This document shows, piece by piece, positions 38,651 through 63,714 of a stretch of 64,000 nucleotides of DNA. The position numbers and the translations under genes are program-made. Each line of letters opens with the position of its first letter. Position 1 is the stretch's first letter. Source of the DNA: Escherichia phage vB_Eco_slurp01; sequence record LT603033; one strand, 5' to 3'. Under the pieces are notes generated by a model. The model ran no database searches. It saw only the letters and a list, made by a program, of their open reading frames with translations, and had not been told where the DNA came from.

Positions 38651-38893
38651 ATGAAAGTACTGACAGAACTAGAAATGTATCATAGATTTAATAAGTACTA
38701 TCATTTACTTAAGCCTATACAGAGGATTAAATGTCCATTTGAAGAGAAACAGGTTTTAATCTATGAGCACAAGTTCTTTGTATCATTAGGTACAGATCAA
38801 CAAGAGTACTATTTGACGTTGTACTTGATTACATTAATAGATTTAATTCACTATAAAACCAAACAAGCTAATAAAGAGAAATATGAAAACTAA
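38651..38893 (+). CDS. Family B small protein
   Basis: ORF 38618..38893 trimmed; LGTDQQEYYL. Confidence 0.55.
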   Translation: MKVLTELEMYHRFNKYYHLLKPIQRIKCPFEEKQVLIYEHKFFVSLGTDQQEYYLTLYLITLIDLIHYKTKQANKEKYEN

Positions 38894-39227
38894 TATACAA
38901 CTCAAGGTATATAAATCATTTGAACATACATATATCAAAAGTAGTCTATGTAGAGATGTAATGGATTACAAGGGTAAGCCATTCACAATTACCTATGATT
39001 CTTATGTTAGTGATTTATATATATCATTTGTTAATTACGAAAATAAAATATACAAGCACGTTGATATTAAAGATTTAAGTACTTTATCACCAGAGGAATA
39101 CTTTCAGGAATCATTAGTATGGGATTTAGAGTTTCCTATGCCATTAGTACATAAGATGATAGTACTAATGAAAGAATCTAAACAGGAGCCTAATGGTGAT
39201 TATGAAGAACACACAGTTGAGTACTGA
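38883..39227 (+). CDS. Family C protein (E-E-x-[YF]-F-Q-x-S-L-V motif)
   Basis: ORF track; SPEEYFQESLVWD. Confidence 0.65.
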   Translation: MKTNIQLKVYKSFEHTYIKSSLCRDVMDYKGKPFTITYDSYVSDLYISFVNYENKIYKHVDIKDLSTLSPEEYFQESLVWDLEFPMPLVHKMIVLMKESKQEPNGDYEEHTVEY

Positions 39228-39588
39228 TAATATTAAGAGTTATACAAGCTCAAGTACTGTGACAATCGAAGTGAATTCTATTAATGCTGGTAATGCAGTA
39301 GATAAGTTCTTTATTGCTCAAGGGTACAGGAAAGATATTCATCAATATTGTTCAGTATATGGGGAGTACAATAGTACTGAAGATATAATTTATTGGTCAA
39401 CACATCAAGATTATCTAACTAAAATTGGCGTTCCAGATGTTAGTACTTTATCTGAAGAAGAATACTTTCAGTACAGCTTAGTACATGATGTACCTATACC
39501 TTTAGGGTTAATCAAGGGTATACAGGAAGAGGTTCATAAGCTTAAATCCATGAGTAAAGGTACTTTCATTAGAACAGTGCAATACTAG
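39193..39588 (+). CDS. Family C protein
   Basis: ORF track; SEEEYFQYSLVHD; start 39193 or 39202. Confidence 0.6.
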   Translation: MVIMKNTQLSTDNIKSYTSSSTVTIEVNSINAGNAVDKFFIAQGYRKDIHQYCSVYGEYNSTEDIIYWSTHQDYLTKIGVPDVSTLSEEEYFQYSLVHDVPIPLGLIKGIQEEVHKLKSMSKGTFIRTVQY

Positions 39589-39589
39589 C

Positions 39590-39618
39590 TTGACAGTACT
39601 TTTCATTACTGATATAGT
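39590..39618 (+). promoter_or_regulatory. Internal promoter within family C array
   Basis: TTGACA N17 TATAGT. Confidence 0.55.
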
Positions 39619-39649
39619 ACCTGTACGTTAATCATTAGGGTAGAAAATT

Positions 39650-60502: not shown

Positions 60503-61069
60503 ATGAGTACTGAATTAATTAAAGAAGTCACATTACTTCTGAAGCATTGTTTTAAGTTCATTCCTGATACTGGCTCACGCCAGTACATTAAAGTTAATGA
60601 GAAATATAACATCAATATCCTTGTATCTGAAACTGCGAGCAGTTATGCTAACATTGAGTTGGATTCTGAAGAAAAATATACAGTATTACAAATCATAGCA
60701 GATGTACAACGTAAACAAGATTATCGTTCTTCATTTTACAACGATTATCTGTGTGTTTGCTCAAACTTCAGTGAGAATAAAATTGTGTATAAGAATTTAT
60801 ACACACATGAAGTGATTGATACATATAATTATAAAATTTCATCTGATGAATACAATGTTCTAATGTTCAACGCAAACCTTTTGTATGATGCCAGTACTGT
60901 ACGCTGTTTAGAGTTAGCATATAAAATTCCAAAGATCATGGAAAGAAAAGATTTGATTCACTTTAAAACTATTTTAAAATACAGTACAAAAGAATTAGAG
61001 GATTTAGTACAGGCTCTTAAGAATTTCATTAATGAACATGTACCTGTTAAATTCGAGGATGCACAATGA
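60503..61069 (+). CDS. Family C-related protein
   Basis: ORF 60491..61069 (TTG) trimmed to ATG after GGAGG. Confidence 0.6.
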   Translation: MSTELIKEVTLLLKHCFKFIPDTGSRQYIKVNEKYNINILVSETASSYANIELDSEEKYTVLQIIADVQRKQDYRSSFYNDYLCVCSNFSENKIVYKNLYTHEVIDTYNYKISSDEYNVLMFNANLLYDASTVRCLELAYKIPKIMERKDLIHFKTILKYSTKELEDLVQALKNFINEHVPVKFEDAQ

Positions 61070-61650
61070 ACCATATCAGAACTAAAATTTTGAGACTCAT
61101 GCATGACATTGCAGAACTTTCAGAGATTCATGACATTACGGAAATTGTTGAATTTGATAATTATCGACTGAAAATTGAAAACAAATCCAAACATCGTTTT
61201 GGTTCAGTTCAGTTGGATGTATATAAAACTTATGAATTTTCTAAAAAAATTAAAAGTTCATGGGATACGATTACTATGTACATTCGCACATCCAGAAATC
61301 GTGAACGTATTGGTTCTATTTCTTCTAATATGGTATTTGCGAATGCATTACATGAAAAAATGAATAAAATTGTAGAATCTGATTTCAGTGAAGATGATGG
61401 TTTTATTGGGTTGGATGTTCCACCAGAATTAGACCAAAGTGAAGATATTCGAGATGCATTCATTTTCCAGAAATCATTGTTGGACAATTACAAAGAATTC
61501 GAGTACTTAATGCTTTGTTACGATACTGCAAAAATTCTTGATTGTGGTGAACTAGTTATGTACAATGATTTTATCAATTGCAAGACTGATGTTCTGAATA
61601 CACTACTTCAAAATATAGAATCTGTTAAGGAAAAATATGAACGCTTATAG
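61066..61650 (+). CDS. Family C protein
   Basis: ORF track; DAFIFQKSLLDN. Confidence 0.65.
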   Translation: MNHIRTKILRLMHDIAELSEIHDITEIVEFDNYRLKIENKSKHRFGSVQLDVYKTYEFSKKIKSSWDTITMYIRTSRNRERIGSISSNMVFANALHEKMNKIVESDFSEDDGFIGLDVPPELDQSEDIRDAFIFQKSLLDNYKEFEYLMLCYDTAKILDCGELVMYNDFINCKTDVLNTLLQNIESVKEKYERL

Positions 61651-62218
61651 TTATATGACAGAACGCCATCAGTTATTATATGATATCAGTAAAAAAATGC
61701 TATCAATTGTTGGTAGTGCGAAAGAAATTGAAAAACAATATCTCATCCGTGATGTATCAATTTCATCTAAATGTTGGTCAAATGAATATTACGACCACGG
61801 TATTCTTACTATTTCTGGGGCCAGAAATATTTGTATTGTAAAAAATAAAAGTAAAAGTAATGAAGAGTGTGAGATTAGAACCGATATACAAATTAAGGAT
61901 GATGGAAGTTTTTCACATCACCCATTCCATATTAGTACTATTGGTGTTTTATATAATATTAAAGTACTATTCGGTGATGAAGAGTATGTGTTAAAAGCTA
62001 TCAATCCAGATTCAAGTACAGTTGAAGAAGAACTGTTCCAGATGAGCACTGTTATACCTGAAGAGGTTCTTAGTACTGTTGTTTTTTGTAGTTTAATTTA
62101 TCATACATACAAAAAGAACCAATTCGATTTCCACATTTTAGGAACGTACATCTTCAATACTTTGAATGTTGATCGTTTAAAAGCATTAAATGCAGCAATG
62201 GATAAGGTGCTACAATGA
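61637..62218 (+). CDS. Family C protein
   Basis: ORF track; VEEELFQMSTVIP. Confidence 0.65.
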   Translation: MNAYSYMTERHQLLYDISKKMLSIVGSAKEIEKQYLIRDVSISSKCWSNEYYDHGILTISGARNICIVKNKSKSNEECEIRTDIQIKDDGSFSHHPFHISTIGVLYNIKVLFGDEEYVLKAINPDSSTVEEELFQMSTVIPEEVLSTVVFCSLIYHTYKKNQFDFHILGTYIFNTLNVDRLKALNAAMDKVLQ

Positions 62219-62643
62219 CAAGAGATGATTGTTTGTACATATGGGATATAATTGAAACTACACTTTCAAATCCAGAAAATTATAAAACAAAAAAAAGACA
62301 ACGACACAAAATATGGATAGATTTGTTCGTTGAGGGCATACACGCAGTGACTATTTGGGATTCACCGAGGGCATCAGCATCTACTCTATTGGACAATGAA
62401 TGCATTGATTGCATTAATTCCACTTTTCATCTCTACGGTACTACATTTTTCGGTACATTTCTGGATATTGAAAGTAAAGATGATATTGATTCACTTGCGT
62501 TACAATACCAAGTACTGTATAATACTAAATTAATTTACGATTTAGTACTAGCTTCTTATGTGTATAAATTAATGATGAAATATAATCATATTTCTGTTTC
62601 AGTTTATACTAAGGATATTCTTTCATTAAGAGACAAAACATGA
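62215..62643 (+). CDS. Family C-related protein (divergent)
   Basis: ORF track. Confidence 0.55.
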   Translation: MTRDDCLYIWDIIETTLSNPENYKTKKRQRHKIWIDLFVEGIHAVTIWDSPRASASTLLDNECIDCINSTFHLYGTTFFGTFLDIESKDDIDSLALQYQVLYNTKLIYDLVLASYVYKLMMKYNHISVSVYTKDILSLRDKT

Positions 62644-63149
62644 GTTTATTAAATGCACGCGAATTAGTTGAGATGTATGAGATTTTGTCTTCATATAAAA
62701 ATTCTCATGGAGATGTGATTCTCGACAAAAAGTTCCATGTCAGTGTTGAACATATATCAAATATAGATATGATTTCTTTGGTGGAAAGTAATAAGTCAGG
62801 TCTTGAACGCGATATCATGCGTTTGATTTATATTCCCAAACCATCATATACTAATGATAGTTCAATTAGTAATGAGACATTCATGTATAGTCCTGGTACG
62901 GATTCTACTATAGTATCGCTGTCCAATAAATCAATGGGTACTTTCCAATTCATCTATACCAGTACTGATAACATTGAAGAAATTGAATTTCAAAACAATA
63001 CATTAAGTCCATGTAGTAGTGTTATAACCTTTATGTCATATCTATGGTCAACTAAAACAAGTGCTGTTGTATATAGTTCAAATTATACACAAGATAGTAT
63101 TGTTGAATCATATAAAGTTCTAAAGGAATACTATGAAAATAACAAATGA
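62640..63149 (+). CDS. Family C protein
   Basis: ORF track; EEIEFQNNTLSP. Confidence 0.6.
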   Translation: MSLLNARELVEMYEILSSYKNSHGDVILDKKFHVSVEHISNIDMISLVESNKSGLERDIMRLIYIPKPSYTNDSSISNETFMYSPGTDSTIVSLSNKSMGTFQFIYTSTDNIEEIEFQNNTLSPCSSVITFMSYLWSTKTSAVVYSSNYTQDSIVESYKVLKEYYENNK

Positions 63150-63714
63150 TTTTATTAAAAGTGTAGTACACCCTATGCTTAGTATTATGAAAAAAATACA
63201 GAATCTACCGGAAGATAACGATTACAAGTTTAATCGTTTTGATTCAGATGTGTTTTGTATTGAAATTGAAATTAATAACAATCGCAATTTACATTTAAAA
63301 TTCAAAGAATCGTCAAGTCCGTACTACAACTTTGATATGAATTTTAAAATAGATACTGACATTGAAGAAAACGTAATATCAAATCATACTAGCAAAAATG
63401 GTTTTATGCATAGAACTACTATGTACAATAATAAAAATAGTATTATATCTAAATGGAATCATCAATTCACTAAAATTTGTGAAATTGAATATAGTGATTT
63501 TGGTGAAGAGAATTACTTTCAGTTAAGTACAATTCATGAACTTCCACCGTATGATTATGTTAAAACATGGTTTGATATTCATAATATAATTGATGATGCA
63601 ATCAAACTTCCATTTGGTGTGTCAATATCATATACTGCTCCTAAAACATTTGTTTTTACTGAAGATATGATTATGAAAAAGATATGGGCAATTATCCCAC
63701 TTATGATGGATTAA
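63133..63714 (+). CDS. Family C protein
   Basis: ORF track; GEENYFQLSTIHE. Confidence 0.65.
   Translation: MKITNDFIKSVVHPMLSIMKKIQNLPEDNDYKFNRFDSDVFCIEIEINNNRNLHLKFKESSSPYYNFDMNFKIDTDIEENVISNHTSKNGFMHRTTMYNNKNSIISKWNHQFTKICEIEYSDFGEENYFQLSTIHELPPYDYVKTWFDIHNIIDDAIKLPFGVSISYTAPKTFVFTEDMIMKKIWAIIPLMMD

Follow-up and report, generated by a model that had tools for sequence, protein, structure and literature searches.

Escherichia phage vB_Eco_slurp01, one of the ~350-kb jumbo coliphages of the PBECO4/121Q/G17/slurp01 group (Asteriusvirus), gives ~7% of its genome to a single protein family that is named in no database. The family, here family C, was studied in a 64,000-nucleotide stretch of the phage (record LT603033, one strand; 'the window' below), where 39 firm members stand in tandem on the plus strand over ~25 kb (38883-63714), each with an acidic-aromatic motif toward its C-terminus. 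As judged from sequence comparison, the array genes are functional and under purifying selection, and the family is confined to Asteriusvirus and the RaK2-like jumbo phages. The interpretation preferred, if tentatively, is that of a lineage-specific multigene family of small (~100-225 amino acids, aa), mostly acidic, cytoplasmic proteins that would be expressed early and act, on a fixed fold, as diversified intracellular binders or inhibitors of host proteins. Expansion of paralogues in phages is an already known phenomenon; family C itself appears to be new as a described family, and is notable for its size and for having no solved structural relative.

Definition of the family and its motif

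A hidden Markov model (HMM) running from the motif through the C-terminus was iterated against the window, translated stop to stop in all six frames, and settles on 40 proteins (E 5e-17 to 2e-9), all encoded on the plus strand. Of these, 39 lie in 38883-63714 and one elsewhere (hit 9287-10012; open reading frame (ORF) 9344-10015), ~29 kb upstream of the array and outside the terminal repeat described below. Below these the scores drop to E = 0.33, and in the six-frame translation of the window nothing off-frame or on the minus strand is matched; this goes far past what chance would give. A relaxed regular expression for the motif is matched by 34 of the 177 plus-strand ORFs of the window, all of them within 38883-63714. 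An earlier note made from the sequence had spoken of about 50 paralogues, which is too many (39 are firm and three more are weak, degenerate candidates), and of about 40 genes with the acidic-aromatic core, with which the iterated model agrees.

Counted over the 40 proteins, the motif columns are [S12/T9/D6]-[E28/D7]-[E24/D6]-x-[Y15/L14/F3]-F40-Q38-x-S33-[L22/T14]-[V21/I12/L5]-[Y11/H9/F7/W4]-[D18/N7], that is, the pattern [S/T/D]-[E/D]-[E/D]-x-[Y/L/F]-F-Q-x-S-[L/T]-[V/I/L]-[Y/H/F/W]-[D/N] with an invariant phenylalanine. The initial description of the motif needs amendment at three points: its start is 44-79 residues from the C-terminus, not 30-50; leucine is as frequent as tyrosine before the phenylalanine, where only tyrosine or phenylalanine had been allowed; and the serine or threonine directly adjoins the acidic pair with no residue in between. 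Two size classes are apparent, a short one of 103-137 aa and a long one of 146-224 aa. BLAST joins subclusters only, and it is only by profile that the whole family is united. Members are acidic, with a median isoelectric point (pI) of 4.9 and a median net charge of -9 (the lowest being -26), compared with pI 6.0 for the interspersed non-members.

Known families and distribution

No curated family was matched. Ten members searched against Pfam gave nothing below E = 0.04; isolated chance-level matches (E >= 0.001) were all that came from Pfam and PADLOC for 41 sequences of the long class and from NCBIfam for 37 of the short class; and the profile against PDB sequences reached at best E 0.4. 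Rfam and tRNA scans of the window found nothing. In PHROGs, each of 10 members tested falls in a group of its own (E 1e-50 to 1e-156), every one labelled 'unknown function' (the groups matched are phrog_9317, 13866, 12674, 33987, 33775, 19795, 38467, 30243, 32681, 34636 and 29152), with weak cross-hits to phrog_12674 and phrog_13866. Family C is there split into many separate groups that carry no annotation, and the superfamily goes unrecognised. The papers searched yielded no description of the family, the motif or the fold. The genome papers for fEgEco12 and Sharanji (PMC11895373) mention no paralogue family, the RaK2 paper puts ~10% of RaK2 proteins down as paralogues and the CBB paper lists 22 paralogous ORFs (PMC5259590). 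The proposal that the family is undescribed is thus borne out by the Pfam, NCBIfam, PADLOC, PDB-sequence and literature searches alike, and the motif did not turn out to be a known housekeeping domain.

The search of phage and metagenome sequences that the earlier note had advised is similarly restrictive. Exhaustive HMMER comparison with 1.84 billion representative proteins yields 88 clusters only at E <= 0.001, nearly all with family-like size and the motif near the C-terminus, and those from cultured phages belong to Asteriusvirus and RaK2-like phages. Word-indexed searches of 5.8 billion proteins gave 30 and 27 matches, all unnamed or 'hypothetical' and most on contigs of ~350 kb. With divergent hits as tblastn queries, matches come only from Escherichia and Salmonella Asteriusvirus and from the Klebsiella RaK2, K64-1 and Muenster-type records. 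By HMM count there are 39 members in the slurp01 array, 40 in phAPEC6, 38 in ph0011 and 25 in RaK2, with at least 24 in the part of the locus covered for JNE01. A 62.5-kb metagenome contig (Logan, SRR27902278) has at least 17 members back to back in 1-12737; their motifs are near consensus (LSEEELFQxS), but otherwise none reaches 60% identity to a member in the five phage loci used for comparison.

Predicted fold

AlphaFold2 models were made for one member of each class. The short-class model (55344-55703; 37 aligned sequences) has a mean predicted local distance difference test score (pLDDT) of 81 and a predicted template modelling score (pTM) of 0.75, and consists of five β-strands, a helix at 64-73 that is the motif itself (EDELFQESLV), a second helix at 82-98 and a closing strand; the 10-residue block containing the motif averages pLDDT 96. 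The long-class model (51780-52229; 41 sequences; pLDDT 89.5, pTM 0.84) has an N-terminal helix at 3-21, seven strands, the motif helix at 103-109 following S102, a helix at 115-129 and a strand at 135-138, the last corresponding to a secondary conserved element, [F/Y]-Y-[L/F/I]-D. The order of elements around the motif is identical in the two. On these models each protein is predicted to be a single compact α/β domain to which no solved structure is convincingly related. A β-meander sheet would lead into a short N-capped helix bearing E-E-x-[Y/L]-F-Q, then an S-[L/T]-[V/I]-aromatic-[D/N] turn, a long hydrophobic helix and the closing β-strand, to which long members would add the N-terminal helix. 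With acidic residues after it at the helix start, the serine or threonine (S102 in the long model) looks like a helix N-cap, and the motif as a whole would be the core signature of the fold and not a separable module. A Foldseek search of the predicted viral structures in BFVD returned paralogues from slurp01, PBECO4 and RaK2 only.

Evolution and gene turnover

Escherichia phage ECO103 4-12-1 matches all of 38883-63714 at 97.6% nucleotide identity, and E9.1, SHEFM2K, G17 and phAPEC6 match it at 96-97%. One of the encoded proteins has a slurp01 counterpart of 100% identity, and the matching genes in annotated records of relatives are each a 'hypothetical protein'. More distant comparisons bear out the rapid evolution that had been proposed: reciprocal best hits are collinear, and amino acid identity is 41-95% with ph0011 and 26-57% with JNE01, both from the same genus, and ~30% with RaK2. 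The order of orthologues is partly conserved out to that Klebsiella phage, and in phage A4 a 42%-identical allele occupies a position collinear with its relatives. ORFs are intact in all genomes examined. The pairwise ratio of nonsynonymous to synonymous substitution (dN/dS) with ph0011 is 0.28 pooled and 0.08-0.47 for individual genes; over the motif ±6 codons it drops to 0.13, against 0.31 for the N-terminal part that precedes the motif. Diversifying selection is therefore not what the pooled ratio indicates, and positive selection is not seen in the pairwise ratio of any gene.

Synonymous divergence (dS) from ph0011 differs more than 10-fold between neighbouring genes, from 0.18 to 2.4, and such jumps indicate mosaic exchange between phages, with segments having different histories. 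The nearest paralogue is at most two positions away for 12 of the 39 members, against 4.0 expected. The closest pair of paralogues is only 58% identical, so the array is old and not recently amplified; a recent 'genomic accordion' is rejected on this ground and on DNA-level repeats being limited to the motif, one subgroup and two junctions.

It is at those junctions that gain of genes has left traces. In 41342-42515, gene ends that are 87-97% alike flank two paralogues of 43% identity, where phAPEC6 and ph0011 have one gene; 41336-41412 matches 41956-42032 (87%) and, together with the copied segment at 41849-41938, brackets a one-gene insertion. At the other junction a 54-aa 5' fragment copy of gene 49186 and the gene at 48818-49186 are both absent from ph0011. 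At least one relative lacks gene 41962, and the same holds for gene 48818; with these gene-unit insertions and the differing member counts in three Asteriusvirus genomes the array is not invariant. Both junctions are consistent with unequal homologous recombination between diverged alleles, with gain of a gene unit at gene boundaries. These footprints give a concrete picture of a phage multigene family growing by single genes.

Position, layout and expression

Plus-strand ORFs fill nearly all of 38883-63714, within a block of more than 50 kb of small plus-strand genes. As the earlier note had seen, they mostly overlap, at 50 of 62 consecutive junctions (38216-63714), 19 of these by 1 or 4 nucleotides (nt), and the non-coding share of the array is ~650 nt (2.6%). 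The G17 record has an exact direct terminal repeat of 20,668 bp (1-20668 = 350150-370817, 100% identity), in agreement with the ~20-kb terminal redundancy reported for that phage (PMC6563267), and a 20,668-bp repeat is reported for Sharanji (PMC11895373). Since the G17 repeat corresponds to window 12519-32218, the plus-strand genes read inward from the genome end: terminal-repeat genes, then a second tandem family (family B), then the family C array, which starts 6.7 kb inward of the inner boundary of the repeat. A change in sign of GC skew near window 12 kb coincides with the physical genome end. Both ends of the Sharanji GenBank record fall inside the family C array, at a position equal to window 48772 and beside the 85-nt repeat 48658-48742, and may reflect a broken assembly at that repeat, not a true end of the genome.

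Of 18 strong plus-strand σ70-type promoter matches (at least 10 of 12 positions), five sit in the small non-coding fraction of the array (binomial P = 8e-5), and two of the five directly follow hairpin terminators. Together, the promoter-like sites and hairpins are predicted to split the array into ~five operons. In the related phage PA5oct, RNA sequencing marks the genes of the terminal repeat as early (PMC7318152); for CBB, whose small-gene region has RpoD-like promoters, early expression of that region is suspected by the authors of the study (PMC5259590).

What the proteins may do

Under the preferred reading, host RNA polymerase would transcribe the array genes early, and the products would act inside the infected cell as diversified binders or inhibitors of host proteins, in host take-over or anti-defence, with the fast-changing sheet and N-terminal helix supplying different specificities on a fixed scaffold. 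A number of points weigh against it. Alignment by hhalign of the short- and long-class profiles covers 16 motif residues only (probability 93%, E 3e-7), and with the motif and everything downstream removed one subgroup pair alone can be aligned, MSLQS with the 56021-58315 group (probability 92.5%). Because the profiles align the motif only, with the exception of this pair, common ancestry of the N-terminal halves is inferred, and the notion of one homologous domain rests on the two AlphaFold models. The near-invariant polar glutamine and serine could be a shared binding or functional site rather than a constraint of the fold. Early timing is suggested by promoter-like sequences and related phages, and the binder or anti-defence role is a best guess that leans on context and on the parallel with multigene families of other viruses. 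Lastly, mass spectrometry of virions of phAPEC6 (97% identical), which gave 62 virion proteins with none of gp404c-gp470c among them (PMC7247149), can miss small, low-copy proteins.

A bolder form of the same idea, possible but rather less probable, is that family C is a phage counterpart of the multigene families of African swine fever virus (ASFV) and poxviruses. Some 25-40 early proteins on a fold lacking a solved relative would each neutralise or hijack a different host factor, for example variants of anti-phage defence effectors, and the set would grow by 'allele stacking', in which unequal crossover between co-infecting relatives would put two diverged alleles side by side.

The principal rival makes the motif a docking helix for one common host or phage partner, with the divergent remainder bringing different cargo or activity. 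It is judged unlikely, and stays the main rival since some of the conserved residues are polar and the classes align nowhere else: the motif is the sole stretch conserved across 40 members and across phage genera, it takes in the polar Q (38/40) and S (33/40) and the acidic pair, and it has the lowest dN/dS. However, both models put it in a confident helix (pLDDT ~96-97) within one compact domain; serine or threonine plus acidic residues at a helix start and an invariant aromatic are typical of helix capping and core packing; and it is hard to see why ~40 proteins should need one partner. The related proposal in the earlier note, of a constant module fused to variable ones, has partial support, in that only the motif is alignable between class profiles; against separate modules stand the motif helix inside one compact domain in both models and the like order of elements in the two classes. 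A long shot is that these are immunity-like or exclusion proteins directed against competing phages or polymorphic bacterial toxins. The tandem non-identical paralogues, with gene units gained and lost by recombination between diverged alleles, are as in type VII secretion system (T7SS) immunity arrays (PMC9484751), and the proteins are small, acidic and cytoplasmic. Against this, Pfam and PHROG scans of the interspersed and flanking ORFs reveal nothing toxin-like within or beside the array, known immunity families resemble the proteins in neither sequence nor fold, and paralogues are kept as orthologues between E. coli and Klebsiella phages, so that stable targets fit better than a toxin arms race.

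More improbable again is that the array is largely dispensable, near-neutral baggage from old duplications in a roomy jumbo genome. In its favour are extreme divergence, only moderate constraint, the loss or replacement of some genes between relatives, and the presence of degenerate members and dead 5' fragments. It is made unlikely by the constraint (dN/dS is well under 1 for every member compared) and by retention of ~25-40 members across two phage genera in partly conserved order, with ORFs intact, tight packing and promoters conserved in type. Hardly credible is packaging into the capsid with the motif as a targeting or protease-processing signal, like the ENLYFQ/S site of tobacco etch virus (TEV) protease. 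Its attractions are that E-x-x-Y-F-Q resembles that site and that an inner body is reported for the capsid of phAPEC6 (PMC7247149). The array orthologues in phAPEC6, gp412c-gp466c, are however absent from the virion proteome just cited, contrary to the packaging role that the earlier note had entertained; the genes are in predicted σ70-driven operons near the genome end, away from structural genes; and the motif is modelled as helical and confidently folded, with its serine at Q+2 and not directly after the glutamine.

Several specific identities were considered and set aside. A TEV/NIa-type cleavage site is disfavored by the serine at Q+2 in 33/40, a variable residue after the glutamine, leucine in place of tyrosine in 14/40 and the helical segment in the models. 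Binding motifs for the β-clamp are of the QL[SD]LF type, in a flexible terminus or loop; the family C motif reads Q-x-S-[LT]-[VI]-aromatic and, in the models, is at the end of a packed helix inside a domain. A packaged internal protein of the T4 IP type is countered by absence from the phAPEC6 virion proteome (PMC7247149). Though acidic (median pI 4.9), the proteins do not belong to the Ocr/ArdA class of DNA mimics; a mimic-like mode of action is conceivable. An enzymatic role is unlikely because only the phenylalanine and glutamine are near-invariant and catalytic-type residues are not conserved.

Parallels and their limits

The closest parallels in organization are the MGF110/360/505 families of ASFV and the host-range families of poxviruses, which likewise are tens of tandem, diverged small paralogues near a genome end, apart from structural genes, whose content differs between isolates and changes by unequal recombination. 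Family C, with 39 members in 25 kb near a terminus and gene content that varies between isolates, has the features of a viral multigene family in that sense. Those families are, however, from eukaryotic viruses and share no sequence or fold relation with it, and their roles in host range and immune evasion have been shown experimentally, whereas for family C they are only guessed. Among phages, Bacillus phage G has a lineage-specific expansion of a zinc ribbon to ~35 copies with conjectured function (PMC7824862), similar in being one small domain in tens of copies in a single jumbo phage. It differs in that the zinc-ribbon fold is recognisable and nucleic-acid binding plausible, while the predicted fold of family C lacks a convincing solved counterpart and shows no sign of metal or DNA binding.

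Long series of small ORFs of unknown function that all point one way, start at or near a terminal repeat and have host σ70-type promoters are also found in the T5 pre-early, T4 early and PA5oct terminal-repeat regions. All three regions are, to our knowledge, mosaics of unrelated ORFans and not ~40 copies of one family. The bacterial EsaG/TsaI immunity strings resemble the array in that their paralogues are non-identical and their tandem copies recombine homologously as they evolve (PMC9484751), but stand beside a toxin gene; no toxin or homology was found for the array.

From a practical perspective, a family profile could bring ~40 separate entries now called 'hypothetical protein' in each genome under one family name. 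Should the members prove to be diversified inhibitors aimed at the host, they would amount to ~40 natural binders on one scaffold and a source of anti-defence or host-takeover factors, and the array could then help to explain plating on many E. coli, Salmonella and Klebsiella strains.

Feature list and neighbouring genes

Coordinates are collected in Table 1. The 'amidohydrolase 3' label of phAPEC6 gp447c looks spurious, as gp447c is a 125-aa family C protein.

Table 1. Family C members and associated features of the window, by position within each kind
Feature	Position	Strand	Evidence
Family C array: 39 firm members, 3 weak degenerate candidates, 4 family B genes and ~14 unrelated small ORFs; ~five operons (predicted)	38883-63714	+	
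Member, 114 aa, short class, SPEEYFQESLVWD	38883-39227	+	HMM E 7.8e-14
Member, 131 aa, SEEEYFQYSLVHD	39193-39588	+	HMM E 4.2e-14
Member, 105 aa, QEDELFQYSLVYD	39886-40203	+	HMM E 1.3e-13
Member, 182 aa, MNEIELLAHKIS subgroup	41342-41890	+	HMM E 4.8e-14
Member, 168 aa, second allele at position, 43% identity to 41342-41890; absent from phAPEC6 and ph0011	41962-42468	+	HMM E 1.1e-14
Member, 103 aa, SDEELFQQQLVID	42458-42769	+	HMM E 4.7e-17
Member, 188 aa	42741-43307	+	HMM E 6.2e-14
Member, 168 aa, TEEWWFQQNLVHD	43614-44120	+	HMM E 1.2e-14
Member; ORF opens 44041, likely start 44203 (as phAPEC6 gp455c; 3' of promoter-like site 44146-44174)	44203-44715	+	HMM E 4.3e-14
Member, 175 aa	44712-45239	+	HMM E 1.7e-15
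Member, 207 aa, degenerate acidic pair (VDAFMFQLSLVHD)	45232-45855	+	HMM E 7.4e-10
Member, 171 aa	46060-46575	+	HMM E 7.1e-12
Member, 207 aa as longest ORF; phAPEC6 annotation implies start near 46927	46855-47478	+	HMM E 4.8e-13
Member; likely start 48283, 125 aa; phAPEC6 orthologue gp447c labelled 'amidohydrolase 3'	48163-48660	+	HMM E 9.1e-10
Member, 122 aa; inserted gene, absent from ph0011	48818-49186	+	HMM E 1.6e-15
Member, 118 aa	49186-49542	+	HMM E 5.6e-13
Member, 119 aa	49539-49898	+	HMM E 6e-10
Member, 164 aa, MSLQS/MSLE subgroup, pI 4.05	49908-50402	+	HMM E 7e-16
Member, 156 aa, MSLE subgroup	50404-50874	+	HMM E 1.4e-13
Member, 146 aa, MSLE subgroup	50871-51311	+	HMM E 1.3e-13
Member, 162 aa, MSLQS subgroup	51314-51802	+	HMM E 5.2e-15
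Member, 150 aa, long-class AlphaFold2 model	51780-52232	+	HMM E 2.1e-15
Member, 104 aa	52229-52543	+	HMM E 1.7e-12
Member, 149 aa	52848-53297	+	HMM E 2e-9
Member, 186 aa	54185-54745	+	HMM E 3e-12
Member, 200 aa, FT replaces FQ	54736-55338	+	HMM E 3.3e-10
Member, 120 aa, short-class AlphaFold2 model	55344-55706	+	HMM E 1.4e-16
Member, 111 aa	55696-56031	+	HMM E 3.4e-13
Member, 184 aa	56021-56575	+	HMM E 9.1e-11
Member, 158 aa	56635-57111	+	HMM E 1.1e-12
Member, 164 aa; reciprocal best hit RaK2 ORF419 (30% identity)	57108-57602	+	HMM E 2e-13
Member, 120 aa	57568-57930	+	HMM E 1.9e-13
Member, 137 aa	57914-58327	+	HMM E 3.6e-12
Member, 167 aa, basic, pI 9.1	58315-58818	+	HMM E 8e-15
Member, 187 aa	59341-59904	+	HMM E 6.9e-10
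Member, 188 aa	59849-60415	+	HMM E 1.2e-12
Member, 194 aa	61066-61650	+	HMM E 7.4e-11
Member, 193 aa	61637-62218	+	HMM E 2e-14
Last member, 193 aa, EENYFQLSTIHE	63133-63714	+	HMM E 4.9e-11
Lone member outside array, 223 aa, QEEELFMYSTVID; FM replaces FQ	9344-10015	+	HMM E 3.2e-11 after iteration
Weak candidate, degenerate member (EAARFQYETAFD)	46572-46916	+	hhalign vs short-class profile: probability 30%, E 5.5e-4
Weak candidate, degenerate member	58802-59344	+	hhalign probability 46%, E 2e-4
Weak candidate, degenerate member (IEEIEFQNNTLS)	62640-63149	+	hhalign vs long-class profile: probability 69%, E 4.6e-5
Two family B genes in array (40187-40399, 40348-40635)	40187-40635	+	Family B HMM E 3e-7, 1e-7
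Two family B genes in array (53808-54026, 54004-54195)	53808-54195	+	Family B HMM E 1e-6, 3e-12
σ70-type promoter-like site TTGACA-17-TATAGT with TG, 61-nt gap	39590-39618	+	
Terminator-like hairpin then T run	44108-44129	+	
σ70-type promoter-like site TTGACA-17-TATCAT with TG	44146-44174	+	
Weaker σ70-type promoter-like site, 88-nt gap	48087-48114	+	10/12 positions
Perfect σ70 consensus TTGACA-18-TATAAT with TG, 59-nt gap	56572-56601	+	
Terminator-like hairpin AAAGACCCGTATGGGTCTTT then T run	60414-60433	+	
σ70-type promoter-like site TTTACA-17-TATACT with TG	60447-60475	+	
Terminator-like hairpin directly 3' of last member, closes array	63719-63741	+	
Recombination footprint: copy of 42427-42515, being a member 3' end and a dead copy of the 5' end of gene 42458	41849-41938	+	95-97% identity, one 1-nt indel
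54-aa ORF, 5' fragment copy of gene 49186; marks insertion of 48818-49186	48657-48821	+	48658-48742 matches 49184-49268, 96% over 85 nt

Family B consists of 30 tandem ~75-aa genes with an LGTxxQE core at 32283-38890 (~2% of the genome), starting 65 nt past the inner boundary of the terminal repeat. An HMM made from the 30 also matches 40163-40396, 40342-40632, 53802-54023 and 53989-54192, as expected from the earlier note, which had placed family B genes within the array. The two families are alike in organisation and strand and are adjacent, four family B genes being inside the family C array, but family B is unrelated in sequence, and its proteins are half as long, less acidic and apparently mostly helical. 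The interspersed and flanking ORFs of the array have no Pfam match, and their PHROG matches are 'unknown' only.

The first gene after the promoter-like site at 39590, 39650-39895 on the plus strand, encodes 81 aa, is hydrophobic (grand average of hydropathy +0.38) and is probably a membrane protein; it is 61% conserved in JNE01, far better than its family C neighbours. A third set of paralogues in the window, six tandem genes of ~370-430 aa on the minus strand (258-7443), matches genes that relatives' records annotate as RCC1-like 'chromosome/DNA condensation', and several phAPEC6 proteins so annotated are virion proteins. In ph0011 a 'putative ADP-ribosyl transferase' is annotated ~2 kb downstream of the array (27662-28075 of the compared ph0011 locus), beyond the end of the window, and such an enzyme would fit an early host-takeover region.

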